Assembly (NCBI GenBank): GCA_019244185.1
Contig: JAFATB010000014.1
Coordinates: 576,001-640,000 of the forward strand
Source: Acidobacteriota bacterium
GTDB taxonomy: Bacteria; Acidobacteriota; Thermoanaerobaculia; Gp7-AA8
Reading direction: 5' to 3'
Length of the DNA stretch: 64,000 nucleotides
Part shown: positions 15,756-62,351 of the stretch, piece after piece
Layout of the letters: the number at the start of each line of letters is the position of its first letter
Numbering within the stretch: position 1 is the stretch's first letter
Program-made: the position numbers and the translations under genes
Notes under the pieces: generated by a model
Seen by the model: only the letters and a program-made list of their open reading frames with translations
What the model was told of the DNA's origin: nothing
Database searches by the model: none

Positions 15756-15861
15756 GGCTGAGCTCCTTCCGGGTCGAATGGCGGCAACGATGTGCGGAGG
15801 GGACCGGCCGCGAATCTATCACACGCAATGTGGCAGCCCGGTTGCAGTTGAGCGACGCATC

Positions 15862-20835: not shown

Positions 20836-21051
20836 GTGCGGTTGGGCGAGAGTGTACGCGAGTCGGAAGCGGGGGCCGGATCGGAAGTCGGGAAGGAGAC
20901 AACGGCGGAGGCCGTTGAAGTGCAAAATAAGTTTTTTATCCGGTGTTTTCGGAAAAGACTGCTATCATGAACTTCGTCCATTTCCCCCGGGGTGAAGTGT
21001 GTCTCTCAGGAACTCCTGAGGGGGGCACCGGTCCTAAGAAGGAATTATACA
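20836..21051. promoter_or_regulatory. AT-rich divergent promoter region with hairpin
   Basis: Sharp drop in GC (AAAATAAGTTTTTTAT); CTCAGG-AACT-CCTGAG hairpin near 21005-21020; AAGGA RBS-like sequence before ATG 21052. Confidence 0.5.
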
Positions 21052-24000
21052 ATGATGGCTCTGCGTCGTCTACGTCTCGCTTTGATCCTGAGTGCGATCG
21101 TTTGGGTACCTCTCGCACATGCCGCCACCTCGGACTATCGAGTCCTGATCGACGCGGACAACAACGCAGCCACCGGCTGCTTCGTCGGGGCCATCCCCGG
21201 CATCGATCAGGTGTTGACGACGCGCGTGACGACAACGGATACGGATGGTTCCGTGACGTTGACGCAGCGGCAGGTCTGCTCGACCGGCGTGCTCGGCGCG
21301 CCGATCACGATCAGCACGACCCCGTGGCCGGCCGGCTTTAACGCGAGCAGCGGCAGTCTCCTCATCGAGACCCGCATCCCGTACTCGGCCTTCAGCGGCG
21401 GCGTCGCGCCCGAGGTCATGCATCTCTACTTTGACGGTACGCTCGGCGTCGCGAATCAGATTGTCACGACCAAGCCGAACGGCGATCCGATCCTCTATCC
21501 GACGGCGCCCGCGGGACGGCGTCACTCGGTGCACGTCGGCGACCCGCGCATGATCACGCTCGACGGGCTCGCCACGGACTGGGGCATGATCTCGCCGCTC
21601 GTCGAAGGGCTCGCCTCGGGCGGCACGCAGGCGCTGCGCCTCATCAAGATCTACGCGTTCTCGAATCCGAACGACGGATTCATCTACTTCCGCTTCGACG
21701 CGAACATCTCCACGAACAGCCCCTTCGCGGCCGACGACACGTACTCGCGCGCGCACGGCGCCGGCCTCACCGTTCCGGCGCCGGGCGTCCTCGCGAATGA
21801 CGGCGACCCGAACGGCGCGCCGCTCACCGCGAGCCCGGTCGGTTCGCCTGCCCGCGGCACCGTCACGCTCAACCCCGACGGCAGCTTCACGTACGCGCCG
21901 GACGATCCGACCTCGAACACGGCCGACAGCTTCGACTACAAGGCCTCGAACGGCTCGAAGGACTCGAACGTCGCGCACGTCACCATCAAGGTGTCGACGT
22001 CGACCAACACCGCGCCGCATGCGAACGCCGACTCGTACAGCACCACGGAAGACGTGCCGCTCGTCGTGCCGCCTCCGGGCGTGCTCGCGAACGACCACGA
22101 CGATGAATCCGATCCGCTGACCGTGACCCTCGGCGCGAACGCGACGCACGGCGACGTCGTGCTGCAGGCGAACGGCGGCTTCACATACACGCCGGACGCG
22201 AACTACTTCGGCGCCGACAGCTTCACCTACACCGTCAGCGACGGCCACGCCACCGCGACGGCGACGGTCACGATCGCCGTGACCAGCGTCAACGATCCGC
22301 CGAAGGTGACCGACGCGGCGTTCTCGATTCCGGAGAACAGCCCGAACGGCACCGCCGTCGGCACCGTGCACGTCACCGACAACGACGTCGCCGACAGCCA
22401 CACCTTCTCCATCACGGCCGGCAACACCGGCAACGCGTTCGCGATCAACGCCACCAGCGGCGCGATCACCGTGGCGAACACGACCGCGCTCAACTTCGAG
22501 ACCACGCCGTCGTTCACGCTGACCGTGCACGTCGTCGACAACGGCGTGCCGAACAAGTCGGACAACGGAACGGTCACCATCACGCTCACCGACGTGAACG
22601 ACAAGCCGGTGGCGCAGCCGGATTCCTACACGATCGGCGAAGACGGCACGCTCACCGTGCCGGCGCCCGGCGTGCTCGCGAATGATTCCGATCAGGATGC
22701 GGGCACGACGCTCACCGCGGTCCAGAACGTCGCGCCGCTGCACGCGGCGTCGTTCGCGCTCAACGCGGACGGCTCCTTTACGTACGTCCCGGCCGCGAAC
22801 TACAACGGCACGGACTCGTTCAGCTACCACGCGCACGACGGCTCGCTCGACTCCGACGTCGTGCTCGTCACGATCACGATCACGCCGGTCAACGACACCC
22901 CGAGCTTCACGGGATCCGGCGACGTCTCGTCGCCCGAGGATGTCGCGTACAGCGCGACGTGGGCGACGGCGATCAGCAAAGGACCGAGCGACGAGAACGC
23001 GCAGACGCTGACGTTCAACGTCAGCAACGATGCGAACGCGCTCTTCAGCGTGCAGCCGGCGATCGCCGCCGACGGAACACTGACGTTCACCCCGGCCCCG
23101 AATGCGGTCGGCCTGGCGCACGTCACCGTCACGCTTTCCGATAACGGCGACGGCGCGAACACGTCCGCGCCGGTCAACTTCACGATCAACATCACGGCGG
23201 TCAACGACGCTCCGGTGCTCACGGCGGGCGGCGCATCTCCGGCGTTCACCGAAGACGGCGCGCCGGTCGCGATCGATCCGTCGATCAGCGTGAGCGACGT
23301 CGACGACGCGAACCTCGAGTCGGCGACGATCACCATCACGAACCTTCTCGACAGCGGCTCCGAGACGCTGGCGGCGAACACCGCCGGCACGTCGATCACC
23401 GCGGTCTACAGCGCGCCGACGCTGACGCTGTCCGGCAGCGACACGCTGGCGAACTACCAGCAGGTGCTTCGCAGCATCACGTACGCGAACAGCGCGCAGG
23501 ATCCGAACACGACCGCGCGCAGCATCAGCATCGTCGTCAACGACGGCGACGTGAACAGCAACACGGTCACGAAGACGATGAGCGTCACCGCGGTCAACGA
23601 CGCGCCCGTCGTGACGACGAGCGGCGGCACGACCGCGTTCGTCGAAGACTCCGCGGCCGTCGTCGTCGACAACGCGCTCACGATCACCGACGTCGACTCG
23701 ACGACGCTGACCGGCGCGACCGTCACGATCTCGAACCTCCTCGACAGCGGCGCCGAGACGCTGGCCGCGCCGACGCTCGTCGGCGGCGTGACCGCCGTGT
23801 ACGTCGCGCCGACGCTCACCTTCACCGGCACGGCCACGCTCGCGCAGTACGAGACGATGCTCCGCGCGGTGACGTACAACGACGCCGCCAACGCGCCGAA
23901 CACGACCGCGCGCATCATCTCCTTCCAGGTCAACGACGGTGCCGCGGCGAACAACCTCTCCAACGTCGCCACCAAGAACGTCTCCGTGACGCCGACCAAC

Positions 24001-27000
24001 GACGCGCCGGTGCTCGTCGCCGGCCACACGGTCGCGTACACCGAGAACGGCAGCCCCGTCACGCTCGAGCCGGCGCTCACGATCACCGATCCCGACTCCG
24101 CGACGATGCAGTCGGCGGCGGTGCTCGTCTCCGGAAATGCAGGTGCCGGCGACGTCCTCGCGTGCCCCGCGTGCGGCACGACCGTCCCGGGCATCACCGC
24201 GATCTTCAGCAGCGGGACGCTGCAGCTCTCCGGCGTCGACACGCTCGCGAATTACCAGACCGCGCTGCGCAGCGTCACGTACGCCAACGCCAGCGACGCC
24301 CCGTCCACCGCGCAGCGCGGAATCGACTGGTTCGTGACGGACGCCGGCGGCCTCCAGAGCCAGGACGACGCGCAGAACGACACGCTCGTCAACGTCACCG
24401 CCGTCAACGACGCGCCGGTCGTCACGACCAGCGGCGGCACGACCGCGTTCGTCGAAGACGCCGGCCCGGTCGCCGTCGACAGCGGCCTCACCGTCACCGA
24501 CGTCGACTCGACGACGCTCACCGGTGCGACGGTCACCATCACGAACGTTCTCGACGGCGCGGCGGAAGCCCTCGCGGCACCGTCACTCCTCGGCGGCGTC
24601 ACGGCGAGCTACAACGCCGGCGTGCTGACGCTGAGCGGCACCACGACCCTCGCCAACTACCAGGCCATGCTCCGCGCCGTCACCTACGACAACGCGTCGG
24701 ACACGCCGGCCACCACCAGCCGCACGATCGCGTTCCAGGTCAACGACGGCGGCGCGGTGAACAACCTCTCCACCGTCGCCAACCAGACCGTCTCCGTCAC
24801 GCCGACGAATGACGCGCCGGTCGTCACCACCACCGGGACGACCAGCGCCTTCACCGAAGACGGCTCGCCGGTCGCCGTCGACGGCGGCGTCACGATCAGC
24901 GACGTCGACAGCGCGAACCTCACCGGCGCGACCGTCACGATCACGAACCTCCTCGACAGCGGTGCGGAAACGCTCGCCGCGCCGACGCTGCTCGGCGGCG
25001 TCACCGCCAGCTACGTTGCGCCGACGCTCACGCTCACCGGCACCGCGACGCTTGCGCAGTATCAGACCATGCTGCGGGCGGTCACGTACACGAACTCCTC
25101 GAACGACCCGACCACGACCACGCGCGTCATCTCGTTCCAGGTGAACGACGGCGGCGCGGTGAACAACCTCTCGAACACCGCCACGAAGAACGTTTCCATC
25201 ACCGCGTCGAACGACGCGTCCGTGGTGACGACCAGCGGCGGCACGAGCGCGTTCGTCGAAGACTCGCCCGCCGTCGTCGTCGACGGTTCGGTGAGCGTCA
25301 CCGACATCGACTCGACCACGCTCACGGGCGCGACGGTCACGATCACGAACCTCCTCGACGGCAGCGCCGAATCGCTGGCCGCGCCGACGCTCCTCGGCGG
25401 TGTGACCGCGAGCTACAACGCCGGCACGCTGACCTTCAGCGGCACGACCTCGCTCGCCAACTACCAGACCATGCTCCGCGCGGTGACGTACGACAACTCG
25501 TCGAACGCGCCGAGCACCACCGCCCGCGTCATCGCCTTCCAGGTGAATGACGGCGGCGCGGTGAACAACCTCTCGAACGTCGCCAACAAGAGCGTCTCCG
25601 TCACGGCGACGAACGACGCGCCGGTGGTCACGCCGACCGGCACGACGACGCCGTTCACCGAGGATGGCGGGGCGGTGGCGGTCGACAGCGGCGTCAGCGT
25701 GAGCGACGTCGATAGCGCGAACCTCACCAGCGCTACGGTCACGATCACGAACCTCCTCGACAGCGGCGCGGAAACGCTCGCCGCGCCGACGCTGCTCGGC
25801 GGCGTCACCGCGAGCTACGTCGCGCCGACGCTGACGCTCACCGGCACCGCGACCGTCGCGCAGTACCAGACGATGCTGCGGGCGGTGACGTACAACAACT
25901 CCTCGAACAACCCCACCACGACCACGCGCGTGCTCAACTTCCAGGTGAACGACGGCGGCGCCGTCAACAACCTGTCGAACGTCGGCGCGAAGAACGTCTC
26001 GATCACCGCCGTCAACGACGCGCCGGTGGTCACGACCACCGGCGGCTCGAGCGCGTTCGTCGAAGACTCGCCCGCGGTCGCGGTCGACAACGGACTGACA
26101 ATCACCGACATCGACTCGACGAACCTCACCGGCGCGACGGTCACGATCACGAACCTCCTCGACGGCGTGGCGGAATCGCTCACGGCGACCTCGCTCGTCG
26201 GCGGCGTCACCGCGAACTACGTCGGCGGCGTGCTCACCTTCACCGGCACGACGTCGCTCGCGAACTACCAGTCGATGTTGCGCGCGGTGACGTACAACAA
26301 CACGTCCAACACGCCCAACGTCACCGCTCGCGTCATCGCCTTCCAGGTCAATGACGGCGGAGCGGCGAACAACCTCTCGAACGTCGCGACGAAGACCGTC
26401 AGCGTCACCGCGACGAACGACGCGCCGGTCGTCACCACGACTGCCGCGATCACCAGCTTCACCGAAGGCGCCGGCGCGGTCGCGATCGATTCGCTGGTCG
26501 CCGTCACCGACGTCGACTCGCCGACCCTCGGCAGCGCCGTTATCACGATCACGAACCTGCAGGACGCGGGACTGGAGACGCTGGCCGCGCCGACGCTGCT
26601 CGGCGGTGTGACCGCGAGCTACGTCGCGCCCACGCTCACGCTCACCGGCACGGCCACGGTCGCGCAGTATCAGACGATGCTGCAGGCCATCACGTACAAC
26701 AACTCCTCGAACGCGCCGAACACCACCAACCGCTCGGTCTCGTACCAGGTGAATGACGGCAGCGCCAACAGCAACGTCGCGACGAAGACGGTCAGCGTGA
26801 CGTCCGTCAACAGCGTCCCGGTCGTCACGACGTCGGCGGGCACGTCGGCGTTCGTCGAAGACGCGGCTCCGGTCGTGGTCGACGCCGGCGTCACCGTCAC
26901 CGATCCCGACACCGCGACGCTCGCCTCGGCGACCGTCACGATCGCGAACCTTCTCGACAGCGGCGCCGAAACGCTGGCCGCGCCGACGCTGCTCGGCGGC

Positions 27001-30000
27001 GTCACGGCGAGCTACGTCGCTCCGACGCTGACCCTCACCGGCACGGCCACGCTCGCGCAGTACCAGACCATGCTCCGCGCGGTCACGTACAACAACGCGT
27101 CGAACACGCCGAACGTCACCGTGCGCACGATCAACTTCCAGGTCGATGACGGCCAGAGCACGAACCACCAGAGCGCAGTCGCCTCGAAGAGCGTCAGCGT
27201 GACGCCGTCGAACGACGCGCCGGTCGTGACGACCAGCGGCGGCACGGCCGCGTTCACCGAGGATGGGGGAGCGGTGGCGGTGGACAACGGCGTGACCGTG
27301 ACGGACGTGGATTCCGGCACGCTCGCCAGCGCCACCATCACCATCACGAACCTGCTCGACAGCGGCGCGGAAACGCTCGCCGCGCCGACGCTCCTCGGCG
27401 GCGCGACTGCCAGCTACGTCGCTCCGACGCTCACCATCACCGGCGTCACGACGCTTTCCAACTACCAGACGATGCTGCGCGCGGTGACGTACAACAACAC
27501 CTCGCAGAATCCGAACGGCACCACGCGCACGATCTCGTTCACGGTCAACGACGGCGCCGCCAACAGCAACACGGCGACGCGCGGCGTGACCGTGGCGTCG
27601 GTCAACGACGCGCCGGTCGTCACGACCAGCGGCGGCACCAGCGCGTTCGTCGAAGACTCGCCGGCCATCGCCGTCGACAACGCGCTCACGGTGACCGACG
27701 TCGACTCGGCGAACCTCACCGGCGCGACGGTCACGATCACGAACCTGCTCGACGCCGGCGCGGAAACGCTGGCCGCGCCGACGCTGCTCGCCGGCGCCAC
27801 CGCGAGCTACGTCGCGCCGACGCTGACCATCAGCGGCACGGCCACGCTCGCCCAGTACCAGACCATGCTCCGCGCGGTGACGTACAACAACTCGTCGAAC
27901 ACGCCGTCGACCACGAACCGCTCCATCTCGTTCCAGGTCAACGACGGCGCGGGCGTGAACAACCTCTCCAACGTCGCCAGCAAGACCGTCTCGATCACGC
28001 CGACGAACGATCCGCCGGTGCTCACGGTCAGCGGCTCGCTCAGCTACACCGAGAACCAGGCGCCGGCTGCGCTCGGCGTCACGGCGTCCGTGACCGACGT
28101 CGACTCGACGAACATCACCTCCGCGACCGTGACGATCTCCGCCGGCTTCCAGAGCGGCGCCGACGTCCTCGGCTTCACGACGCAGAACGGCATCACCGGC
28201 AACTACGTCGCGCCGACGCTGACCCTCAGCGGCTCCGCGACGCTGGCGCAGTACGCCGCGGCGCTGCAGAGCGTCACCTACCAGAACACCTCGGACGATC
28301 CGACGACGGCCGCGCGCACGGTCACGTTCCAGGTCAACGACGGCAGCGCGAACAGCAACACGCAGACGTCGACGATCAGCGTCACCGCGACCAACGACCC
28401 GCCGGTCAACAACGTCCCGACGAATGCGCAGTCGGTGAACGAAGACACGCCGCTCACCTTCACCGGCGCGGGCAACATCGTCTCGATCACCGATCCGGAC
28501 GCGCAGTCGGGGAACATCTCCGTCGAGATCAAGACCACCAACGGCACGACCACGATCGTCACGCCGACGGGCCTCACGTTCGCCCCGCCGGCGGGCAACG
28601 GCACCGCCGACTACACGATCAGCGGCACGCTCGCCAACGTGAACGCGTCGCTGGCCACGCTGCGCTTCAACCCGACGGCCGACTTCCCGTTCGCCGCCGC
28701 CTCGGGCACCGCGTCGATTCAGCTCATCACGACCGATAACGGCAATACGCCGGCGCCGGCGAAGGGCGACGACGACACCTTCAACATCACCGTCAACCAG
28801 GTCAACGATCCGCCGACGGCGGGCAGCGACACGTTCGACACCATCGGCAACACCGAGCTGCGCGTCGACATCGGCGTGGCCGGCACGACGCCGAACGTGG
28901 TCAAGACCAGCGTCACCACCCTCAAAGGCGTTCTCGGGAACGACTCCGACAACCCGAACGAGAACAATCCGTTCACCGTCACGTCGATCGTCGGCTGCGC
29001 CGACATGAGCAACTGCACCCTCGCGTCGGGCTCGATCGTCTCGATGAACAGCAACGGCACGTTCACCTTCAAGCCGTCGCCGACGATCCCCACCGGTGCA
29101 CCGGCCTCGGACACGTTCCAGTACGTCATCACCGACCAGCCGGCCGGCGGCACGCCGCAGACGGCGACCGGCACCGTCACGATCCACATCTTTGACAAGG
29201 TGTGGTACGTGAAGGAAGGCGGCACGGGCAACGGCCGCTCCGATTCACCGCTCGGTGCCTTCACGACTCTCAACGGCGCAGGCGGCGCCGGCGACGTCGA
29301 CGCCGCGGGCGACTACATCTTCGTGCAGCGCAACTCGACCAACCCGGTCAACGGTCCGATCGAGCTCGAGGCGAATCAGCACCTGCTCGGTGAGGGCGTC
29401 GGTCTTTCGATCCCGCGCGCGCTCAACGGCAACGCCTCGCCGGTCAATCTCGTCGCGGCCGGCACGAAGCCGCCGATCGCTTCGGCGAGCGACGCCGTCC
29501 AGATCAAGGCGGCCATGCCGGTCGAAGTGCGCGGTCTCGACATCAGCGCGAGCGGCGGCAACGACGTCGATCTCACGGCCACCGGAGCGTTCAGCGGTTC
29601 GCCGACGCTGACGATCTCCGACAACGTCTTCACGACGGCGTCTGCGGAAGACGTCGACGTCAACGCCGGCGCGACCGGCACGCTGGGTCTCACGATCCAG
29701 AACAACAGCTGGGGCACAGGCGCTCACGGCAACAACGGCATCGACATCCGCACGACGGCCGCGAATACGCTGAACCTCCTCGTGGCGAACAACACCGGCA
29801 TCGGAGTGACCGGCACCGGCATCCTGATCGACGGCAGCGGTGCGACCGTCACCATCACCGACTTCTCCAGCAACACGATCACCGGCGCCACCGGCGGGAC
29901 CGGCATCTCGATCAACAACGCCAAGTTCGACCAGACCCCGACCGGCGGCTTCCAGGCCGTCTCCGGCGGCACGACGACCATCGGCGTGACCGGCAACGGC

Positions 30001-32124: not shown

Positions 32125-32145
32125 ATCTCTCTACTCGCTGTATCG

Positions 32146-32182
32146 AAAAGGCCCTGCGCGGATCCGCGCAGGGCCTTTTTTT
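32146..32182 (+). terminator. Intrinsic (possibly bidirectional) terminator
   Basis: Perfect palindrome AAAAGGCCCTGCGCGGATCCGCGCAGGGCCTTTT with a T7 run, 21 nt after the stop of adhesin A. Confidence 0.9.
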
Positions 32183-32386
32183 ACGTCTGCGCTGACAGCG
32201 GCAAATGAACGCTTGCGCATGGGTGGAACAGACGTTAAATTGTCTGGCGATCGTCCGAGAGAGATAACGAAGTCAACGCAGGCAAGTCGCCTTTCCGAGA
32301 CCTTTTTGCGGAACGGCGGTGCGATTCATTCACGGTCCAACGGTTACGAACAAACGTTTCCTGCAGCGATCCGGAGGGGTTTCCGT

Positions 32387-35300: not shown

Positions 35301-38300
35301 TGCAGCCGAGCATCGCGCCAGACGGCACGCTCACGTTCACGCCGGCCGCGAATGCGAACGGCACCGCCACGGTAACCGTCTATCTGACGGATGACGGTGG
35401 CACCGCGAACGGCGGCGACGACACCTCGCCCTCGCAGACCTTCACCATCAACGTCACGGCCGTCAACGACGCGCCGTCGTTCACGAGCGGCGGCAACGTG
35501 ACGGTGAACGAAGACTCCGGCGCGTACAGCGCGCCGTGGGCCACGTCGATCAGCGCCGGCCCCGCCGACGAGTCGGGCCAGACGCTCACGTTCCACGTCA
35601 CGGGCAACAGCAATCCGTCGCTCTTCTCCGTGGCGCCGTCCATCGCGCCCGACGGCACGCTGACGTTCACGCCGGCCGCGAACGCGTTCGGCAGCTCCAC
35701 CATCACCGTGACGCTCTCCGACGACGGCATGACCGCCAACGGCGGCGCCGACACGAGCGCGCCGCAGTCGTTCACGATCACCGTGAACAACGTCAACGAC
35801 GAGCCGAGCTTCACCGCCGGCGGCAACGTCACCGTCAACGAAGACTCCGGTGCGTACTCCGCGGCGTGGGCGACGGGCATCAGCGCCGGTCCGAACGAGG
35901 GCTCGCAGACGCTGACGTTCCACGTCTCGAACGACAACAACGCGCTCTTCGCCGCGCAGCCCGCGATCAGCGCGAGCGGCGTGCTCACCTTCACGCCGGC
36001 GTCGAACGCGTTCGGCACCGCCACCGTAACCGTCTATCTGCAGGATGACGGTGGCACGGCGAACGGCGGCGACGACACGTCCGCCAGCGTCACGTTCCAG
36101 ATCACCATCAACCCCGTGAACGACGCGCCGTCGTTCAACTCCGGCGGCGACGTGACGGTCAACGAAGACAGCGGCGCGTACACCGCGCCGTGGGCCACGT
36201 CCGTCAGCGCCGGCCCGGCCAACGAGTCCGGCCAGACGCTCGCCTTCGTCATCACCGGCAACACCAATCCGTCGCTCTTCGCCGCCGGTCCATCCATCGC
36301 GCCCGACGGCACGCTGACGTTCACGCCGGCCGCGAACGCCTTCGGCTCCGCGGCCATCACCGTGCACCTGCAGGACGACGGCGGTACCGCAAACGGCGGC
36401 GCCGACACCTCGGGCTCCGTGACCTTCAACATCAACGTCACCTCCGTCAACGATCCGCCGTCGTTCACCGCCGGCGGCAATGTGACGGTCAACGAAGACA
36501 GCGGCCCGTACTCGGCGACGTGGGCGACGAGCATCTCCGCCGGCCCGGGCGAGTCGCAGCCGCTGACTTTCAACGTCAGCAACGACAACAACGCGCTCTT
36601 CGCCGTCCAGCCCGCGATCAGCCCGAGCGGCGTGCTGACGTTCACGCCCGCGCCGAACGCGTTCGGCTCCGCGAATGTCACCGTCACGCTCTCCGACGGC
36701 ATCGACACGACCTCGCCGGTGACCTTCGTCATCACGGTCAACGGCGTCAACGATCCGCCGACCGCGAACAACGATACGTGGGAGACGGAAGGCAACACCG
36801 AACTGCGCGTCGACGTCGGCCCGTCCGCGACGCCGCATGTCTCGGATACGACGCCCTCCGGCCGAGGCGTTGCCGACAATGACGCCGACACGGTGGAAGG
36901 CGATCCGTTCAGCGTCACCGGCATCGTCGGCTGCGCCGACACCACCGCGCCGTACGTCTGCAGCGTCGCCGGCGGTACGGTCACGATGAATGCGAACGGC
37001 AGCTTCTCCTTCATGCCGTCGCCTGGCGCGACCAGCGCTACGTTCCAGTACACCGTCACCGACCAGCCCGCGGCAGGCATCCCCGCCAGCGCCACCGGCA
37101 CGGTCACGATCACGATCCACGACATGATCTGGTACGTGAACGGCGGCGCTCCCGCGGGCGGCAACGGCACGTCCGCCTCGCCGTTCAACTCGTTCGCGCC
37201 GCTCAACGGCGGCGGCGACGCCGACGTCGCGGGCGACTACATCTTCGTGCACGCCTCCACCGTCAACGGCGGCATCGCGCTCGAGCCGAACGAGAAGCTG
37301 TGGGGCGAGGGCGTCGGTCTCATCATTCCGCGCAATCTCAACGGCAACGGCTCGCCGACGACGCTCGTCGCGCCCGGCGTGAAGCCGCTAATCGCCGCCT
37401 CGGTCGGCAACGCGGTCGACGTGAGCTCCGTGAGCGGCGTCGAGATCGCCGGTCTCGCGCTCTCCGCGCCGACCGGCAACGGCATCGACGTCACCAGCCC
37501 GATCGCCGGCGCTGCCGCGGGTGCGCGCATCTACAGCAACAGCATCACCGCCGCCGGCCAGCAGGGCATCGACATCAGCGCCTTCGGTCCGATCGGCACC
37601 GACGTGTCGATCGACAGCACCTCGATCGTGTCGACCGGCACGGGCATCGCTCTCTTCGGTTCCGACGGCACGGTGACCTTCTCGTGCACCAACACCTCGA
37701 TCCGCTCGATCGCGGGCTCCGGCATTACCGCCGATGCCAGCGCTGCCGACGCGTTCTACGTCACCGGCCTCGCCAACGTCAGCGTCGATGGCGCGACGCC
37801 TGGCGCGGGCATCTCGGTCACCGGCGCGACCTTCGATGCGAATCCGTCGACGGCGGCGTTCGACACCGTCAACACCGGCACGCTCAACATCGGCTCGAGC
37901 GTCGACCCGGTCGGCACTTCGGGTCTCACGCTCACGAATGCGAGCGGTGACGTCGCCATCGGCACGCTCAACTCGTTCGCCGCGACGCAGGCGCTCGGCG
38001 TTGCCGGCAGCGGTCTCTTCACCGGCACGACCGGCCTGCAGCTGACGTCCGGCGGCGGCTCGCTCGCGGCCACCGCGGGCGTCGGTCTCAGCGTCACCAA
38101 CACCACCATCGGCGCGGCGAACCTCTCGTTCACCAGCGTGTCCGCCGCGGGCGCGACCAACGGCATCGTGCTGAACAACACCGGCACCACGGGCGGACTC
38201 AAGGTCCTCGGCACCGGCTCCGCGAACAGCGGCGGCACGATCCAGAACACCACCAGCCACGGCGTCCTGCTGACGAACACCACCGCGCCGTCGTTCAACA

Positions 38301-39502
38301 ACGTGCGCGTGCAGAACACCGGCGGCAGCGGCGTCAAGGGCACGCAGGTGAACGGCTTCACGTTCACCAACGGCTCGATCGCGAGCTCCGGCACCGCCGG
38401 CGGTGCGGACGACAGCAACATCGCGTTCAACACCTTCACCAGCGGCAACGAGCAGAACGTCTCCGGCGTCGTCACGATCACCGGCAACACGCTGACCACC
38501 GCGCTGTGGAACGGCATTCACATTCGCAACGGGAACGGCGTGCTGGCGAACGTCATCGCCTCGAACAACACCATCACCAGCGCGACTACGACCGCCGCGT
38601 CGAAGGGCACGGGCATCAACATCGAGCTCCTCGGGAACGCTTCGACGGTGGCGAGCCTGACCAAGGCGAGCTTCGCGAACAACGTGATCTCGAACTTCCC
38701 GAGCGGCGGCGGCATCCAGATCCTCGGCGGCAATGCGAACGCCGCCGGACCGGCAGGCACCGCCGGCATCGACGGCGATCCGGCGAACGTCGTCTCGATC
38801 ACCGGCAACTCGATCAAGGGTCTGAGCCCCGCGAGCCGCATGGGTACGAACGCGATCGTCGTGTCCGTCGGCGGCAAGGGTCAGGGCAACTTCGCCGTGA
38901 ACAACAACGGCGCGGCCGGCAACCCGATCACGAACGTGCTCGGCGCCGCGATTCTCGTCGGCGTGAACGGCAACGCGCACGCGACGGTCGATACGAGCAG
39001 CAACGTCATCGTCGCGAACAACTCGCTCGGCTCAGCGGGCATCTCCGGCGGCACCGGCATCACGTTTGGCAACACCGACACGCCGATCCTGTCGTGGACC
39101 ATCAACGGCAACAGCGTCAGCGCCACGGACGGCAACGGCATTCTCGCCGTCGCGCGCGGCGCGGCGGGCCAGTTGAAGACCGCCATTACGAACAACGTCG
39201 TGGCCGCGCCGCTGACCGGTGCGCGTCCCGGCATCCGCGTCGACGCCGGCACCGCTGCCTCGACCGACGATGCGGTCTGCCTCTCGATCTCCGGCAACAC
39301 CAGCGCCGGCAGCGGCGGGCTTCAGGGCATCGGTCTGCGCAAGCAGGGGAGCAACCCGACCATCAACGATTTCGCGATCGTCGGGAACCCTGCCACCTCG
39401 TCGCCGGCGGTCGAAGCGTACGTCGACGGTCTCAATCCCGCCGGGGGCGGGACGGTGCTTCTTTCCGCAACCACGGGATTCACGAACTGCACGCTGCCCT
39501 GA
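32387..39502 (+). CDS. Giant secreted adhesin B (~2370 aa): haemagglutinin-like N-terminal beta-helix, Ig-like repeats, C-terminal beta-helix paralogous to adhesin A
   Basis: GGAGGGG RBS and ATG 32387; signal peptide ending AFA; 8 EDSG repeats; C-terminal region shared with adhesin A. Confidence 0.9.
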   Translation: MRSLSLRLLLSLLSLIAVPVAFAHDVTISGTNSFAALDGSAVDHDHAVNGVFTVNDGNLIVNGTVNCNDDGASANSACAMAFVVSGNVTINAGGALYAENRAGNGSGGAISVSAGGSLTLNGNAIISASSNGGSSTSNGGNVSITAGAVTLGSTSTIDAGASGGQAGSITIGAGGVVTIAGNVLSGPSRALLATRLTGAVLNGGGGNQSGGAITIATTTFIEPALVVSSTANIVSQGEKNGAGNVTLDACGIEIRGLVAAVSTKDLPAHVIVRSGKSLLVDGRDLGATGTRMGRVRADALNDGATDDGVDLFARGDVSVYGPLTGSLFVVSSVPGGKVKKDGSGTIRVVSLEGAATVSGKAFIAGIDGKGTRGGTISIDSAGTATLDTATLVAIGDYTKPKKQSAGGHIAVRSYSGDVLWRNGTGDIRPVGSDADVPPADQGTIVLTACGTVNTTGSSFPTTGVATSVFPQTQTGVCSPAAPSLPAGTPPLVTCNTPPVANDTSASTNEDNAVTVHLSGSDADGDSLTFSIVTPPAHGSLGAVVSTGPTTADVTYTPALNYNGSDSFVYRANDGNGGTDDANATITIAPVNDPPSFLAGPTVTVLEDSGPKTVVSWATSISPGPADESAQSVTFTVTNDNNALFAVQPAVAPNGTLTFTPAANAYGSATITIVAHDNGGTANGGNDTSAPQTSTITVTAVNDPPSFTAGPNQTVNEDSGAQSVANWATSISAGPNESGQALTFHVSNDNNALFSAQPAVSPSGTLTYTPAANANGTAIVTVYLQDDGGTANGGVDTSATQTFTITVNAVNDEPSFTSGGNVSVLEDSGAYSAPWATSISAGPADESGQTVTFSTSNDNHALFSVQPSVASNGVLSFTPAANAFGTATVTVTLSDNGGTANGGDDTSPSQTFTITVNAVNDEPSFTSGGNISVLEDSGAYSAPWATGISAGPNESAQALTFHASNDNNALFSVQPSIAPDGTLTFTPAANANGTATVTVYLTDDGGTANGGDDTSPSQTFTINVTAVNDAPSFTSGGNVTVNEDSGAYSAPWATSISAGPADESGQTLTFHVTGNSNPSLFSVAPSIAPDGTLTFTPAANAFGSSTITVTLSDDGMTANGGADTSAPQSFTITVNNVNDEPSFTAGGNVTVNEDSGAYSAAWATGISAGPNEGSQTLTFHVSNDNNALFAAQPAISASGVLTFTPASNAFGTATVTVYLQDDGGTANGGDDTSASVTFQITINPVNDAPSFNSGGDVTVNEDSGAYTAPWATSVSAGPANESGQTLAFVITGNTNPSLFAAGPSIAPDGTLTFTPAANAFGSAAITVHLQDDGGTANGGADTSGSVTFNINVTSVNDPPSFTAGGNVTVNEDSGPYSATWATSISAGPGESQPLTFNVSNDNNALFAVQPAISPSGVLTFTPAPNAFGSANVTVTLSDGIDTTSPVTFVITVNGVNDPPTANNDTWETEGNTELRVDVGPSATPHVSDTTPSGRGVADNDADTVEGDPFSVTGIVGCADTTAPYVCSVAGGTVTMNANGSFSFMPSPGATSATFQYTVTDQPAAGIPASATGTVTITIHDMIWYVNGGAPAGGNGTSASPFNSFAPLNGGGDADVAGDYIFVHASTVNGGIALEPNEKLWGEGVGLIIPRNLNGNGSPTTLVAPGVKPLIAASVGNAVDVSSVSGVEIAGLALSAPTGNGIDVTSPIAGAAAGARIYSNSITAAGQQGIDISAFGPIGTDVSIDSTSIVSTGTGIALFGSDGTVTFSCTNTSIRSIAGSGITADASAADAFYVTGLANVSVDGATPGAGISVTGATFDANPSTAAFDTVNTGTLNIGSSVDPVGTSGLTLTNASGDVAIGTLNSFAATQALGVAGSGLFTGTTGLQLTSGGGSLAATAGVGLSVTNTTIGAANLSFTSVSAAGATNGIVLNNTGTTGGLKVLGTGSANSGGTIQNTTSHGVLLTNTTAPSFNNVRVQNTGGSGVKGTQVNGFTFTNGSIASSGTAGGADDSNIAFNTFTSGNEQNVSGVVTITGNTLTTALWNGIHIRNGNGVLANVIASNNTITSATTTAASKGTGINIELLGNASTVASLTKASFANNVISNFPSGGGIQILGGNANAAGPAGTAGIDGDPANVVSITGNSIKGLSPASRMGTNAIVVSVGGKGQGNFAVNNNGAAGNPITNVLGAAILVGVNGNAHATVDTSSNVIVANNSLGSAGISGGTGITFGNTDTPILSWTINGNSVSATDGNGILAVARGAAGQLKTAITNNVVAAPLTGARPGIRVDAGTAASTDDAVCLSISGNTSAGSGGLQGIGLRKQGSNPTINDFAIVGNPATSSPAVEAYVDGLNPAGGGTVLLSATTGFTNCTLP
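34157..36748 (+). repeat. 8 intragenic tandem Ig/cadherin-like repeats, ~108 aa each
   Basis: ND[PEA]PSF..G..V.EDSG...WAT.ISAGP...LF..QP....G.LTFTPA units. Confidence 0.92.
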
Positions 39503-39551
39503 ACGGGCGGCGTGCAGTTCTCGATCGAAGTTTGTAGACAGGAGGAAATCG

Positions 39552-40061
39552 ATGGCAGAACCATTTCTCTCGGAGATCCGGATCATGAGCTTCGTGTTCG
39601 CGCCGAAAGGGTGGGCTCTGACCAATGGGCAGTTGCTGCCCATCAATCAGAACCAGCCGCTCTTCTCGCTGCTCGGCACCACGTTCGGCGGCGATGGCCG
39701 CGTGAACTTCGCGCTGCCGGATCTTCGCGGACGCGTGCCGATTCACGTCGGCAGCGGGCACACGCTGGGCGAGCGCGGCGGCGAGCAGGCGCATACGTTG
39801 TCGATCGGGGAGCTCCCGACGCACACGCACGTCCTGAACGCCACGAGCATCGACGCGACCACGAACACCGCCGCGAACAACGTGCTGCTCGCCAAGACGA
39901 CGGCGGCCAACATGTACGCGCCGGCGAGCTCGAACCTCGCCGCGATGGCGCCCGCGGCGATCGCGAGTGTCGGCGGCTCGCAGGCTCACCTGAACATGCA
40001 GCCCTTCCTCACGCTGTCGTTCTGCATCGCACTGCAGGGCATCTTCCCGTCGCAAACTTAG
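39552..40061 (+). CDS. Phage tail-collar domain protein (MdpB-like), triplet 1 subunit A
   Basis: MAEPFLSEIR, FAPKGWA, LFSLLGTTFGGDG..FALPDLRGR, HTH, NMQPF..FCIALQGIFP; AGGAGG RBS. Confidence 0.93.
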   Translation: MAEPFLSEIRIMSFVFAPKGWALTNGQLLPINQNQPLFSLLGTTFGGDGRVNFALPDLRGRVPIHVGSGHTLGERGGEQAHTLSIGELPTHTHVLNATSIDATTNTAANNVLLAKTTAANMYAPASSNLAAMAPAAIASVGGSQAHLNMQPFLTLSFCIALQGIFPSQT

Positions 40062-40076
40062 AAAGGAATCGCGATC

Positions 40077-40589
40077 ATGGCCCAGCCCTACGTTGGTGAG
40101 ATCAGAATGTTTGCGGGCAACTTCGCGCCCGCCGGCTGGATGTTCTGCGAGGGACAGCTCCTGCCGATTTCGGAGTACGAAACGCTGTTCAACCTGATTG
40201 GAACGACTTACGGAGGCGACGGACAAAGCACCTTCGCGCTGCCCGACCTCCGCGGCCGGATTCCGCTTCATCAGGGGAACGGCTTCATCCTCGCCGAGAC
40301 CGGCGGCGCCGAGGAGATCACGCTGACCGTCGCGCAGATGGCGGGGCACTCGCACGCGCTGCTCGCCACGCGCAACCCGGCCTCCAGTTCGTCACCGGGA
40401 TCGAGCGTCCTGCCCGGCATCACGGCCGCGTCGACCATCACGCCGTACGGTACCGACGCCCCGCGCGGTCCCGCGGCCCCGAGCGCCGTCAGCGCGGTCG
40501 GTGGCAGTCAGCCGCACAACAACTTCCAGCCCTATCTCTGCGTGGACTTCATCATTTCGCTGTTCGGCATCTTCCCGTCTCCGACTTGA
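40077..40589 (+). CDS. Phage tail-collar domain protein, triplet 1 subunit B
   Basis: YVGEIRMFAGNFAPAGW, YGGDGQSTFALPDLRGR, HSH, PHNNFQPY. Confidence 0.93.
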   Translation: MAQPYVGEIRMFAGNFAPAGWMFCEGQLLPISEYETLFNLIGTTYGGDGQSTFALPDLRGRIPLHQGNGFILAETGGAEEITLTVAQMAGHSHALLATRNPASSSSPGSSVLPGITAASTITPYGTDAPRGPAAPSAVSAVGGSQPHNNFQPYLCVDFIISLFGIFPSPT

Positions 40590-40634
40590 TGCCATTGGTG
40601 GAAGCGCCGCATTCGCGAAAGAGAGGAGAAAACG

Positions 40635-41153
40635 ATGGCCGATCCGTTTGTTGCTGAAATCCGCATCTTCCCCTTCAACTTCGCCCCCAAAGGGTGGGCG
40701 TGGTGCGACGGGCAGCTCCTGCCGCTGTCGCAGAACACCGCGTTGTTCTCGCTGCTCGGAACGACCTATGGCGGTGATGGCAAGTCCACCTTTGCGTTGC
40801 CCGATATGCAGGGCAACACCCCGATGCATCCGGGACAGGGACCCGGACTGTCGCTGCATGACCTCGGCGAGACCGGCGGCTCCGAAACCGTCTCGCTGCT
40901 CGAGTCCGAGATCCCGTCGCACAGCCATGGCCTGATGATCTCGTATCAGGACGGCACCGATCAGTCGCCCGTCAACGAGCAGTACTCGAGCGGCGTCGGC
41001 ATCGGACAGTGGGCCGTTCCGGGGGCGCTGGTCGCGCTCTCCGACAACGCCCTCGCCCCCGCCGGCGGCGACCAGCCGCACAACAACATGCAGCCGTACC
41101 TGACGCTGTACTTCAACATCGCGCTGCAGGGCGTTTACCCGCCGCGCACCTGA
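40635..41153 (+). CDS. Phage tail-collar domain protein, triplet 1 subunit C
   Basis: FVAEIRIFPFNFAPKGW, GQGPGLS, HSH, PHNNMQPYL. Confidence 0.93.
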   Translation: MADPFVAEIRIFPFNFAPKGWAWCDGQLLPLSQNTALFSLLGTTYGGDGKSTFALPDMQGNTPMHPGQGPGLSLHDLGETGGSETVSLLESEIPSHSHGLMISYQDGTDQSPVNEQYSSGVGIGQWAVPGALVALSDNALAPAGGDQPHNNMQPYLTLYFNIALQGVYPPRT

Positions 41154-41201
41154 TTCACGTTCACGTTCATCGAGAGAGAGACAAGACTGGAGATCCGCAT
41201 C

Positions 41202-41939
41202 ATGAACACGACCTGCCGCCCTGGTGACATTGGCAGACGTGAGTTTCTCGTGCTGTCGTCGACGTGTGCCGCCGCGACAGCGGCCTTCGGACCGAAGCTG
41301 TTCGCCGCCGAATCGCAGGCGGTGGCGAAGCGGCTTGCCGTCGGCTTCACTGATGCCGAGGAGGGAGCGGCGTTCGTTCCGGCGGCGCAGATCCCTTCGG
41401 GCGACGGCGGCTTCATCAGCCGGGGCGCACGCATCGCGGTCTCGGGCGCAAGTGGAGTGCCCGCGGCTCCGGATGCACGCCGCACCGTCGAGTTGCGTAC
41501 GCACTTTCCGTACTTCGAAGGGGCGGACCGCCGCGAGGCGTTGTATCTCGCGTGGGGTTCGAACCGCCGCACCGGCAGTCAGGGTGCGCCGGTGAGCTTC
41601 ATCGCGCCGGTCGACGTCGAGCAGAAGGTTCTGCTCAGCGTCGCCGTCGAATCGGGAGCGGTCGGCGGTGCGCCGACGCGCCGCCGCGCCGTGGGTGGCG
41701 CGGGCACGGCGTCGTCGAGCATGCTGCCGCTCACGCTCGCGCTCACGAGCGAGGCTGAAACGCTGAAGCTCGTGCGTGGCTACTACGCGGTCGTCCCGCT
41801 GTTCGAGAACGACCGCGAGCCGCGCTGGTCCGACTACACGCTCGCGCGCAAGGACGCGCGCTGGGCGCTGGTCGACCGCAACGGCGAAGTCGCACCGTTC
41901 GAGCATTTCGTTCTCCGCATCGATTACGCCACCGTCTGA
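41202..41939 (+). CDS. Hypothetical protein with twin-arginine (Tat)-like signal
   Basis: GRREFL followed by an Ala-rich h-region; GGAG RBS; lies between the collar and GNAT genes. Confidence 0.7.
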   Translation: MNTTCRPGDIGRREFLVLSSTCAAATAAFGPKLFAAESQAVAKRLAVGFTDAEEGAAFVPAAQIPSGDGGFISRGARIAVSGASGVPAAPDARRTVELRTHFPYFEGADRREALYLAWGSNRRTGSQGAPVSFIAPVDVEQKVLLSVAVESGAVGGAPTRRRAVGGAGTASSSMLPLTLALTSEAETLKLVRGYYAVVPLFENDREPRWSDYTLARKDARWALVDRNGEVAPFEHFVLRIDYATV

Positions 41940-41941
41940 TC

Positions 41942-42466
41942 GTGACCTCATCCGCTTCGGGTGACCGCGCCGCCGGCGCGGTCACCCTTCGTCCCGCCAC
42001 CGACGCCGACTACGCGTTCATGCGTTTCCTCTACGGCTCGACACGCGAAGAGGAACTGCAGCATTTCCCGTTCGACGATGCGCAGAAGTCCGCGTTCCTC
42101 GACCAGCAGTTCGCCGCGCAGTACGAGCATTACCGCGTGCATTACCCGACCTGCGAGCGCAACATCATCGAGGTTGGCGGCGAGCTCGCGGGCCGGCTCT
42201 GGCTCGACGAATGGCGCGATCAGATCCGCCTCGTCGACATCGCGCTCCTGCCGCGGTGGCGCGGCACCGGCGTCGGCACGAGCCTCGTGCGCAACGTGCT
42301 CGCGCGCGGCGCCGCGGCGGGGAAGCCGGTCACGATCCACGTCGAAGCCTACAACCCCGCGCTGCGGCTCTACCAGCGCCTCGGCTTCGAGAACGTCGAC
42401 ACCAACGGCGTCTACCTCCTCATGCGCTGGGCGCCGCCCGATCAGGCGAAGACGGCTTCGTACTGA
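41942..42466 (+). CDS. GNAT N-acetyltransferase of the tail-collar-associated type
   Basis: FLDQQFAAQ..HY, LVDIALLP.WRGTGVGT, HVEAYNPALRLYQRLGF. Confidence 0.92.
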   Translation: MTSSASGDRAAGAVTLRPATDADYAFMRFLYGSTREEELQHFPFDDAQKSAFLDQQFAAQYEHYRVHYPTCERNIIEVGGELAGRLWLDEWRDQIRLVDIALLPRWRGTGVGTSLVRNVLARGAAAGKPVTIHVEAYNPALRLYQRLGFENVDTNGVYLLMRWAPPDQAKTASY

Positions 42467-42741
42467 TAGACGTCTTTCGTCTCGCCGACCGGCACGAGGA
42501 AGATGTCCATCGGCTCCGCGGTCTCGTGCGTGACGTGATAGATGCGCTGCTGCAGCAGGTACGAGCGCGGGCCGATGAAGTAGAGCGAGAACGGATGGCG
42601 CGGCAGCTGCGCGGCCTCGCTCTCCATCACTTTTGCGGCGCGCTCGAGCCGCAGTTCCACCTTCGCACCATTCGGGAATTCGGCCCAGAAACTCGTTCCC
42701 ACGAGCGGTTCGAACGATTCGACGGTGAGCTGATCCAGCAT
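42442..42741 (-). CDS. DUF6916-like small protein
   Basis: LTVESFEPLVGTSF, PFSLYF.GP, L.QRIY...H, IFLVPVG, YEAVF pattern; typical neighbour of collar triplets. Confidence 0.75.
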   Translation of the reverse strand: MLDQLTVESFEPLVGTSFWAEFPNGAKVELRLERAAKVMESEAAQLPRHPFSLYFIGPRSYLLQQRIYHVTHETAEPMDIFLVPVGETKDVYQYEAVFA

Positions 42742-44711: not shown

Positions 44712-44727
44712 CCCGCCCGGCGCGCCG

Positions 44728-47106: not shown

Positions 47107-47199
47107 ATGAAGAACGCAGAACGCAGAACGCAGAATTGAGAAAAGGGAGCCGGTTCTCCTTTCTTCATTCTTCGTTCTGCGTTCTGCGTTCTTCATTCA
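47104..47199. repeat. Palindromic heptamer-repeat element, copy 2
   Basis: 27-bp perfect inverted arms TGAATGAAGAACGCAGAACGCAGAACG / CGTTCTGCGTTCTGCGTTCTTCATTCA; central loop differs from copy 1. Confidence 0.9.
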
Positions 47200-47212
47200 A
47201 GCGGAGGCCAGC

Positions 47213-58859: not shown

Positions 58860-58924
58860 CGCGGCGTTCGCCTGCTATCATCGTCGCGGGTCAGATCCCC
58901 ACCACAATTCGAGCGGAGGTCGAG

Positions 58925-59422: not shown

Positions 59423-59442
59423 AAGTTCCTCAGGAGGAAGCG

Positions 59443-59937: not shown

Positions 59938-59946
59938 GGAGGCGCC

Positions 59947-60456: not shown

Positions 60457-60515
60457 GCCGCGTCTGCTGAAACTGATGTAAACGCGGCGATGTGCTGCGC
60501 TGTCCAAAGCGCATC

Positions 60516-62349: not shown

Positions 62350-62351
62350 TC

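Follow-up and report, generated by a model that had tools for sequence, protein, structure and literature searches.

We analyzed a 64,000-nucleotide stretch of the genome of an Acidobacteriota bacterium (assembly GCA_019244185.1, contig JAFATB010000014.1, positions 576,001 to 640,000), here called the window, in which genes for giant surface proteins stand next to three small genes for proteins with a phage-type tail-collar domain. By its gene content, this locus is a cellular, nonviral cassette composed of a giant secreted protein with immunoglobulin (Ig)-like repeats and a predicted beta-helix, three collar paralogues (A, B, and C), a dedicated GNAT acetyltransferase, a DUF6916 protein, and a lineage-variable gene. 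In this genus, the lineage-variable gene is the one for a putative twin-arginine translocation (Tat)-signal protein. The triplet probably gives giant surface proteins a swappable binding head. As the gene set recurs across phyla, its presence at one locus is not a matter of chance.

The host genome (G000) comprises 5.3 Mb in 26 contigs and is 98.9% complete. The genes of the window (66 to 70% G+C) were called by third-position G+C and checked with Pfam. These calls recovered every gene that a first-pass annotation of the same DNA had listed, each in its place. The adhesins, collar genes, Tat-signal gene, and GNAT gene follow one another on the plus strand; one correction concerns the DUF6916 gene, which is encoded on the minus strand and converges with the GNAT gene. 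The annotation had described the collar triplet at 39552-41153 and made no mention of a second one, which lies at 58925-60456. The features of the first cassette are as follows.

21052-32124, plus strand: giant surface protein (adhesin) 1, 3690 aa; Pfam Cadherin_4 (4e-66) and Big_9 (2e-49)
32145-32187, plus strand: intrinsic-terminator-like 16-bp hairpin followed by U7, directly 3′ of adhesin 1
32387-39502, plus strand: giant surface protein (adhesin) 2, ~2371 aa counted from the Met preceding the signal peptide; Cadherin_5 and Big_9 (1e-36)
38060-39499, plus strand: predicted C-terminal right-handed beta-helix domain of adhesin 2, ~480 aa
39552-40061, plus strand: collar protein A, 169 aa; N terminus MAEPFLSE, HxH at residues 91 to 93, PF07484 3.2e-25, A type by profile
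40077-40589, plus strand: collar protein B, 170 aa; N terminus MAQPYVGE, HxH, PF07484 6.5e-30
40635-41153, plus strand: collar protein C, 172 aa; N terminus MADPFVAE, HxH, PF07484 5.5e-27 and a weak Gp10_C match
41202-41939, plus strand: Tat-signal protein (here Tat-245), 245 aa; GRREFLV followed by a hydrophobic helix, no Pfam family
41942-42466, plus strand: GNAT, Acetyltransf_1 6e-12; starts 2 nucleotides past the Tat-245 stop codon
42442-42741, minus strand: DUF6916 protein, 99 aa, no signal peptide; PF21880 7e-26, 90.6 bits against a cutoff of 27

To compare the locus across phyla, we anchored loci on a collar alignment and ran a pattern scan with one genome per species. This gave at least 598 collar relatives, from which the 80 loci most similar to the query were kept; they form a biased sample in which kin are not independent. 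The 80 loci belong to the Acidobacteriota, Chloroflexota, Pseudomonadota, Verrucomicrobiota, Bacteroidota, Actinomycetota, Eremiobacterota, Gemmatimonadota, and Bacillota. At least 4 kb of sequence was available on both sides (flanks end at 10 kb) in 51 loci from 8 phyla, and among these well-flanked loci, exactly three collar genes were present in 46, a GNAT gene in 47, and a DUF6916 gene in 44. A same-strand, stop-to-stop open reading frame (ORF) of at least 900 aa was found within 3 kb in 46 of the 51 loci, 41 of which had both GNAT and DUF6916 as well; this threshold is weak, with a background of 0.45 in this high-G+C genome. With the threshold raised to 1400 aa, 42 of the 51 loci had such an ORF within 3 kb, versus a background of 0.09 in the host genome. 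The median size of the largest neighbor was 2125 aa, a value clipped by the 10-kb flanks. In Pseudomonadota and Actinomycetota, the giant gene is the upstream neighbor; in Acidobacteriota, Bacteroidota, and Chloroflexota, it is the downstream one. This difference in side among phyla suggests that the linkage has outlived rearrangement.

The giants of different cassettes also share a domain. The C-terminal domains of adhesins 1 and 2 are paralogous (51% identity over 492 aa), and a matching beta-helix domain was present in the cassette giants of 38 of the 80 loci (E < 1e-6); in 7 loci from 5 phyla, it was 46 to 57% identical over ~480 aa. The assignment as a right-handed beta-helix comes from Atlas neighbors with Beta_helix or NosD matches, and adhesin 2 has a Beta_helix Pfam match of its own, albeit a weak one. 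Against PDB sequences, the sole match of the domain was the AlgE4 epimerase (E = 0.79), i.e., no solved sequence relative was found.

Comparison with 41 related genomes (counts include the unpublished G002 and G024) gave a similar picture. DUF6916 was found in 24 of them and three or more Collar matches were found in 23, with the collar genes forming 38 clusters, mainly triplets, with a spacing of ~520 bp. A collar gene is at most 5.4 kb away from 22 of the 27 DUF6916 matches (in one case, that of G013, the neighbor is a collar fragment); of the other five matches, three are on contigs of <5 kb and two are in genome G027. Three genomes (G010, G015, and G023) carry two consecutive giant-ABC units followed by the Tat-signal and GNAT genes, G024 has the order giant-ABC-giant, and G003 is syntenic with the window. 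Judged by these arrangements, the duplicating unit is the giant gene plus ABC, and Tat-245, GNAT, and DUF6916 remain single. The earlier proposals that the collar proteins are linked to the adhesins and that GNAT and DUF6916 belong with them are thus supported by comparison: the former by the neighborhood statistics (42 of 51 loci versus ~9%), the shared beta-helix domain, and the duplication of giant plus ABC, and the latter by the 47 and 44 of 51 loci given above.

Collar triplets also occur on 83 plasmid or chromid records. One of these, plasmid p2 of the cultured Aminobacter niigataensis (NZ_CP132960.1, 53970-78470; locus L196), holds an annotated copy of the cassette, in the order >4000-aa hypothetical protein, three "tail fiber protein" genes, 494-aa Lys/Ala-rich protein, GNAT, and, on the opposite strand, 91-aa hypothetical protein. 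DUF6916 itself is widespread, with 9575 clusters at 50% identity (E ≤ 0.001) in a library of 1.84 billion representatives. Our literature search found no paper mentioning DUF6916, and a search on collar-domain proteins returned phage work, a virophage paper, and RhiB only, none of them describing the cassette.

Within the window, both adhesins start with a Sec-like signal: MMALRRLRLALILSAIVWVPLAHA in adhesin 1 (judged by eye) and MRSLSLRLLLSLLSLIAVPVAFA in adhesin 2. As the first-pass annotation had it, and as the N termini and the alignment confirm, the two are followed by three HxH-bearing collar paralogues without signal peptides. The gaps from adhesin 2 through A, B, and C to the Tat-signal gene are 50, 15, 45, and 48 bp; 2 nucleotides separate the latter from the GNAT gene, whose 3′ end overlaps that of the convergent DUF6916 gene by 25 bp. 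The hairpin after adhesin 1 has a predicted folding energy of −35.6 kcal/mol (z = −6.2), and none of 200 shuffled sequences folded equally well. A consensus scan found no sigma-70 promoter-like sites in the 31.9- to 43.1-kb region, and the same scan did not list the adhesin 1 hairpin either. Given this terminator-like hairpin and the 2- to 50-nucleotide gaps, adhesin 2, A, B, C, Tat-245, and GNAT look like one operon and adhesin 1 looks like a separate transcription unit. Upstream of adhesin 1 and divergent from it is a gene for a 928-aa PAS-GGDEF-EAL protein (18139-20925, minus strand), a neighbor that is conserved in G003 (L108, 71% identity); control of the adhesins by cyclic di-GMP is possible. 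Farther upstream, the 9462-17127 segment encodes a further giant surface protein of 2097 aa with DUF11 repeats on the minus strand, beside a secreted matrixin-like metalloprotease with a CarboxypepD_reg domain.

A profile search of the host genome found six Collar matches, every one of them inside the window. All six proteins (165 to 172 aa) score 84 to 103 bits with PF07484 against a cutoff of 24, and H91, H93, and one later His are invariant among them. No hydrophobic N terminus or signal peptide was found in A, B, or C. The C protein carries a 5-residue insert that is typical of C types and common to the C protein of the second triplet. A profile of the B type matched the long tail fiber 8KEC in the PDB (1.7e-10), with the HxH motifs aligned, and the T4 gp12 chains 1OCY, 1PDI, and 5IV5. 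The first-pass annotation had compared the collar proteins to fiber tips of the T4 gp12/gp37 type. That likeness extends to the HxH motif, aligned to that of 8KEC, and ends at the shaft: the collar domain begins at residue 7 or 8 of the window proteins, and they are shaftless.

Across phyla, column conservation in all three chains is 0.8 to 0.97 at residues 1 to 95 and 141 to 170 and just 0.33 to 0.5 in the hypervariable stretch of residues ~96 to 140. Taken as a whole, the A, B, and C types are each 69 to 75% conserved column by column, and collar A is up to 81% identical to A types from other phyla. The alignments thus describe a conserved collar scaffold that bears a fast-changing surface, predicted to be distal. 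For collar paralogues of Solibacter, positive selection has been reported (PMC3174227).

Each type appears to be represented once per cluster. With type-specific profiles, all 86 three-gene collar clusters were scored as one A, one B, and one C, in the order ABC in 76, BCA in 5, BAC in 4, and CBA in 1. Since the profiles were built from position-labeled rows of 44 of the tested loci plus the window, this scoring is partly circular, with independent evidence coming from the 10 permuted clusters. In a tree of 213 sequences from complete triplets, the position labels require 12 changes versus 101 when shuffled, and none of 200 shuffles was as low. A three-collar cluster was found in 69 of the 80 loci, and single or paired collars were seen at contig ends (L022, L023, L031, and L107) and in L085, where the A-versus-B call is ambiguous. 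Comparison therefore supports the view that the triplet consists of three paralogue types of ancient origin, maintained at 1:1:1. The one-of-each composition, found in all 86 clusters, favors a heterotrimer of the kind demonstrated for the virophage DSLV2, and it is likely that A, B, and C form a 1:1:1 heterotrimer, as the first-pass annotation had conjectured. In one complex prediction, A, B, and C with DUF6916 as the partner gave a median score of 0.57, two controls with the partner replaced gave 0.00 and 0.00, and a control with an unrelated protein in place of C gave 0.51; these scores speak neither for nor against a complex.

Several searches bear on the cellular nature of the cassette. 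Among 50,697 phage records, 728 contained a collar relative, all below 60% identity and the best at 39%. In IMG/VR, the best identity was 53% and the next was at most 45%, and 58 of 80 viral loci had a single collar ORF; the few IMG/VR loci with GNAT or DUF6916 look like cellular fragments. In a scan of 130 flank ORFs from 18 loci, the 25 Pfam families most often matched were housekeeping ones and included no phage structural family; a further 87 single-member families fall outside these 25. No capsid, sheath, tube, or baseplate family matched the window ORFs scanned with Pfam. The earlier description of the locus as phage free thus holds for the scanned window ORFs and the sampled flanks elsewhere; the genome does carry a sheath, tube, and baseplate cluster on another contig (described below).

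We next consider the helper genes. The Tat-245 protein carries the twin-arginine motif GRREFLVLSSTCAAATAAFG, in which R12, R13, and F15 are invariant in 30 homologues. An AlphaFold2 (AF2) model with a predicted local distance difference test (pLDDT) score of 79 shows residues 12 to 34 as a helix and the mature part as a beta-sandwich; its closest folds are C2-like sandwiches (Z ≤ 5.6 by VIA-align), a similarity that may reflect a common arrangement. A Foldseek search against the PDB gave nothing at E ≤ 0.001, and the Atlas gave no usable match. Of 217 Tat-245 homologues, the named ones are all from Thermoanaerobaculia or Acidobacteriota. Among the related genomes, there were 19 matches in 18 genomes, in this genus only, of which 17 lie <500 bp and 18 lie <2.6 kb from a collar gene.

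Elsewhere, a second DUF6916 protein with a canonical Tat signal was found in 19 of 66 DUF6916-bearing loci. We considered whether Tat-245 could be a diverged DUF6916 protein and rejected this: BLASTP gave an E value of 15, hhalign gave a probability of 0.5%, and hhalign against the 19 Tat-signal DUF6916 paralogues aligned the signal peptide alone. With no detectable relation between Tat-245 and DUF6916, two unrelated Tat-signal proteins seem to occupy the same niche. Under a stricter pattern, 22 Tat-motif ORFs lay near the cassette versus 3 far from it.

GNAT orthologues are common at the cassette, with 77 ORFs across the 80 loci at 33 to 53% identity. The nearest solved GNATs are weak and mixed matches (E of 1e-4 and weaker) that include N-terminal acetyltransferases, spermidine acetyltransferases, and others, and they name no substrate. 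Among 186 collar proteins, position 2 is occupied by Ala in 140 and by Ser in 20; N-terminal acetylation at these conserved Met-Ala starts is only a lead.

The DUF6916 gene is single copy in the host genome, and its named homologues come from metagenome bins of Thermoanaerobaculia (Acidobacteriota). The AF2 model (pLDDT 91) is a small split beta-barrel that best resembles YcgR-N/PilZ-type barrels, with 5ejl (Z = 8.7), 3kyf (7.9), and 5y6f (7.6) on top and Z scores for this type of 7.3 to 8.7 by VIA-align, values that are near the level of a common arrangement. No cyclic di-GMP-binding motifs (RxxxR and DxSxxG) were seen by eye in the DUF6916 alignment, and Foldseek found no match in the PDB or BFVD at E ≤ 0.001. 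A likeness to phage neck or stopper proteins was rejected, with weak template modeling scores of 0.53 to 0.54 and YcgR-N/PilZ-type barrels ranked first by VIA-align. As modeled, neither the DUF6916 fold nor that of Tat-245 names a function. On the opposite strand, 35 bp from the start of the DUF6916 gene, is a homologue of inward-rectifier-type K+ channels (42777-43754, plus strand; IRK_C 1e-26), which is conserved beside DUF6916 in G003 and G023.

The second collar triplet of the window has different neighbors. It and the two genes before it are as follows.

53974-57549, plus strand: LVIVD-repeat multiheme cytochrome (Pfam), 1191 aa, 10 CxxCH, signal-like N terminus
57546-58859, plus strand: cytochrome c554-like protein (Pfam), 437 aa, 4 CxxCH, signal-like N terminus
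58925-60456, plus strand: second collar triplet, with A′ at 58925-59422, B′ at 59443-59937, and C′ at 59947-60456; PF07484 3e-26, 1e-26, and 5e-24

This triplet has the ABC composition and keeps the HxH motif, and it sits on long branches, with at most 51% identity to any other triplet. No GNAT, DUF6916, or Tat-245 relative was found within 6 kb of it. The c554-like gene is single copy in 21 genomes of the genus, G000 included, and directly 3′ of it there is a full-length triplet in G000 and G015. The same slot in G004, G012, G017, and G023 holds 3 or 6 "headless" collar proteins of ~105 to 110 aa, which retain the collar and the last strand and lack the HxH motif and the variable part; in the other genomes of the genus, nothing was seen in this slot on the same contig. 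In the 52172-60456 segment, a conserved operon of an HbpS-like protein, a 624-aa protein, the LVIVD decaheme protein, and the c554-like protein precedes this variable slot (relatives in L192 to L195 and L103). The position of triplet 2 beside cytochromes suggests that the partner need not be an adhesin, and by this gene context, collar sets also accompany large, putatively secreted nonadhesin proteins.

These results can be joined in one explanation, the cassette as a tip on a giant protein with shared helpers, to which, taken whole, we give about an even chance. A, B, and C would assemble 1:1:1 in the cytoplasm into a gp12/gp37-like trimer clamped by metal on three HxH pairs. The conserved collar part would act as a scaffold for docking and trimerization, and the hypervariable 45-residue distal part would be the ligand-binding head, probably for glycans. 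The prefolded trimer would cross the inner membrane by piggy-back on the Tat-signal protein and, once outside the cell, associate with the giant at the latter's cassette-specific beta-helix domain. If each monomeric giant carried one asymmetric trimer, the retention of three different chains would be explained. The single-copy GNAT, DUF6916, and Tat proteins would serve all triplets of the genome in trans, including triplet 2, which would partner secreted multiheme cytochromes instead of an adhesin. The functional coupling of the triplet to the giant, to which the conserved neighborhood points, seems rather better than an even bet. The helper roles of GNAT, DUF6916, and the Tat protein, suggested by their place in the gene set, are tentative and fall somewhat short of that, and the piggy-back export of the trimer through Tat is a shade more doubtful again.

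Besides the biased sample of loci, the weak 900-aa threshold, and the partly circular composition test, a number of observations weigh against this explanation. Five of the 51 well-flanked loci have no giant ORF nearby, and both Eremiobacterota loci are without GNAT, DUF6916, and a giant. In genome G027 (95% complete), two DUF6916 genes occur without any Collar match, which indicates that DUF6916 is not strictly tied to collar triplets. In most cassettes of Pseudomonadota and Actinomycetota there is no Tat-signal gene nearby, and Tat piggy-back can therefore not be the general export route. The slot after C is variable and is filled on the Aminobacter plasmid by the 494-aa Lys/Ala-rich protein, which has no Tat motif. 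Variable-region length shows no covariation among A, B, and C (r = −0.07 to 0.30), and the neighbors of triplet 2 are cytochromes, not adhesins. Finally, the collar proteins are without signal peptides, and the trimer may be confined to the cytoplasm.

This last point leads to an alternative in which A, B, C, GNAT, and DUF6916 are all intracellular and form a machine for assembly, quality control, or modification of the giant, or a sensor, and the tip is never displayed. All five proteins are indeed without a signal peptide, most cassettes outside the Acidobacteriota, Chloroflexota, and Verrucomicrobiota have no Tat-signal gene, and DUF6916 resembles the cytoplasmic YcgR-N/PilZ-type barrels. 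However, a Sec-type giant would cross the membrane unfolded, and a folded, lectin-like trimeric tip would then find little work in the cytoplasm; the pairing of a conserved scaffold with a hypervariable distal region, as in the collar proteins, is what a binding surface that faces outward would show; and Tat-signal genes are enriched at the cassette (the 22 near versus 3 far). We therefore regard an entirely intracellular role as unlikely.

If a tip is formed, it need not be mixed: A, B, and C could each homotrimerize into three distinct tips. The solved phage relatives T4 gp12 and gp37 are homotrimers, and the lack of covariation in variable-region length fits separate tips. Against this stand the strict one-of-each composition of all 86 clusters, permuted orders included, the occurrence of singles and pairs just at the four contig ends and in the ambiguous L085, and the age of the three types, each about 70 to 75% conserved across phyla. 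Moreover, the sole three-gene collar set that has been tested, that of DSLV2, is a heterotrimer (PMC12724248). Three homotrimers are thus improbable, and we retain the single mixed trimer as the preferred form of the tip.

A third possibility is that the neighborhood has no joint function and that the triplet is an independent secreted module, similar to a lectin or bacteriocin, that lands in accessory islands rich in giant genes. The module does look horizontally mobile, as the A, B, and C proteins of the window have their nearest relatives in other phyla (~80% identity), triplets are on the 83 plasmid or chromid records mentioned above, and triplet 2 is beside unrelated cytochromes. Such independence is nevertheless hard to reconcile with the ORFs of at least 1400 aa on the same strand within 3 kb in 42 of 51 loci against ~9% background, with the specific beta-helix domain that the giants share, with the duplication of giant plus ABC as a unit, and with intergenic gaps of 15 to 50 bp in the operon, and we hold it to be very unlikely.

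Finally, the host genome encodes an extracellular contractile injection system (eCIS)-like cluster (G000:C10:44000-64000; L190) with sheath, gp19 tube, CIS tube, GPD hub, Baseplate_J, and Tail_P2_I genes, and no HK97-type capsid was found in it. After the cluster come three unassigned proteins (457, 415, and 396 aa; the 396-aa one has a TIG domain), which may be its own fibers. Among the 41 genomes, G000 included, 20 had both collar and sheath matches, 3 had collar only, 3 had sheath only, and 15 had neither; the collar-only genomes are G015 (100% complete), G016 (90%), and G038 (99%). Within the genus, the overlap of collar and sheath was 19 observed versus 17.6 expected, i.e., there was no association. 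Since the overlap is at expectation and since collar-only and sheath-only genomes exist, we judge the collar triplets and the eCIS-like cluster to be independent by distribution. The first-pass annotation had named an eCIS encoded elsewhere as a possible owner of the collar proteins; the eCIS-like cluster of this genome appears to be unrelated to them. That the triplets are fiber tips used in trans by this capsidless, contractile-tail particle of another contig, as the collar domain reported for some eCIS fibers (Pvc13; PMC12923769) and the sheath match in 20 of 23 collar-positive relatives might suggest, is extremely improbable, given that the collar proteins start at the collar domain without a shaft or a part for baseplate attachment, that three genomes have collars without a sheath and three have a sheath without collars, that the genus overlap is as expected, and that the triplets (on C4, with the cluster on C10) are linked to giants, GNAT, and DUF6916 and not to tail genes.

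Having weighed these alternatives, we compared the tip-on-a-giant arrangement with known systems. The collar proteins share with the T4 gp12 and gp37 tips and with 8KEC the collar domain, an HxH motif (aligned with that of 8KEC), and a conserved C-terminal strand running back to the collar. Those proteins are long homotrimers with an N-terminal shaft on the baseplate, whereas here the proteins are 165 to 172 aa long and start at the collar, and unlike gp12 and gp37, they come in three fixed paralogue types outside any phage. In Tat hitchhiker export, as in hydrogenase-2 (HybO/HybC), a prefolded, cofactor-holding complex without a signal leaves the cytoplasm together with a partner that carries the twin-arginine motif. 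The cassette of this genus similarly encodes a putative signal-less complex beside a partner bearing the sole twin-arginine signal; unlike in the hitchhiker case, not every cassette has a Tat partner, and those that occur come from at least two unrelated families (Tat-signal DUF6916 elsewhere and Tat-245 here).

The closest parallel in gene arrangement is the virophage DSLV2 (Aquatic Virophage 1 lineage; J Virol 2025), whose three consecutive collar proteins copurify as a heterotrimer that binds Synechococcus lipopolysaccharide (LPS) (PMC12724248). As there, three consecutive small PF07484 genes are conserved as a set, and the fiber reported for DSLV2 combines a conserved collar with a variable head that binds a surface glycan (LPS), a pattern of variability that is alike here. 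The DSLV2 proteins belong to a virus, with a collar predicted to dock on a capsomer, whereas the set studied here is chromosomal, with viral relatives at most 53% identical. A giant Ig/beta-helix protein, GNAT, DUF6916, and a Tat partner are all absent from the DSLV2 set. The likeness is one of gene arrangement.

Other collar proteins outside replicating phages are known. RhiB of the Rhizobium rhiABC(D) operon (COG4675), which is controlled by quorum sensing, is presented as a cellular, nonphage collar protein (PMC13133039 and PMC6969944), and "microcystin-dependent" proteins of COG4675 are reported as detected in soil metaproteomes (PMC5579227). RhiB is encoded by a single collar gene that accompanies the unrelated RhiA and RhiC and forms no triplet, and the passages on it report no giant, GNAT, or DUF6916; it is set apart here by these descriptions. 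Fibers of eCIS of the Pvc13 type carry a collar domain for target binding (Nat Commun 2026; PMC12923769). They share with the triplets a collar domain outside a replicating phage; the Pvc13-type proteins as described there are long fibers inside the eCIS cluster, whereas the triplets are far from the eCIS-like cluster and do not track it.

The tip-on-a-giant explanation could be widened. In such a reading, which we consider speculative and unlikely in its full form, collar heterotrimers would be a general cellular plug-in head that is folded in the cytoplasm, exported prefolded, and docked on varied monomeric giants (adhesins and cytochromes) as a fast-evolving target-binding surface. The head would be metal clamped, it would travel by Tat piggy-back where a Tat partner exists, and it would depend on one shared set of GNAT and DUF6916, details that we put forward with the same reserve. 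The headless minicollar sets would then be docking rings without a head. If true, the plug-in head would be a cell-owned counterpart of phage receptor-binding proteins, and the largest surface proteins of many bacteria in soil, water, and the rhizosphere would bear a phage-style head that varies rapidly. This would bear on attachment, aggregation, and possibly mineral contact via surface cytochromes; on the exchange of modules between phage receptor-binding parts and cellular adhesins; and on the role of the long-puzzling "microcystin-dependent protein"/RhiB family. In scale, collar triplets are present in at least nine phyla, and cultured carriers include Chiayiivirga flava DSM 24163, Flavobacterium phragmitis, Mesorhizobium huakuii NBRC 15243, Aminobacter niigataensis, and Paenibacillus eucommiae.

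Two further parts of the window adjoin the collar modules. Downstream of triplet 2, a 1080-aa frame (60492-63734, plus strand) joins a DUF1549 (PSCyt2) part to a DUF1501 part with an internal twin-arginine motif; this single ORF probably reflects two genes or a frame problem. At 43773-50331, two FHA-domain proteins, one with DUF4388 and the other with multiheme cytochrome motifs, flank a 792-aa protein with flavin adenine dinucleotide (FAD)/cyclic nucleotide-binding and 4Fe-4S domains and a cytochrome b-like protein; this looks like a signaling-redox cluster between the two collar modules.

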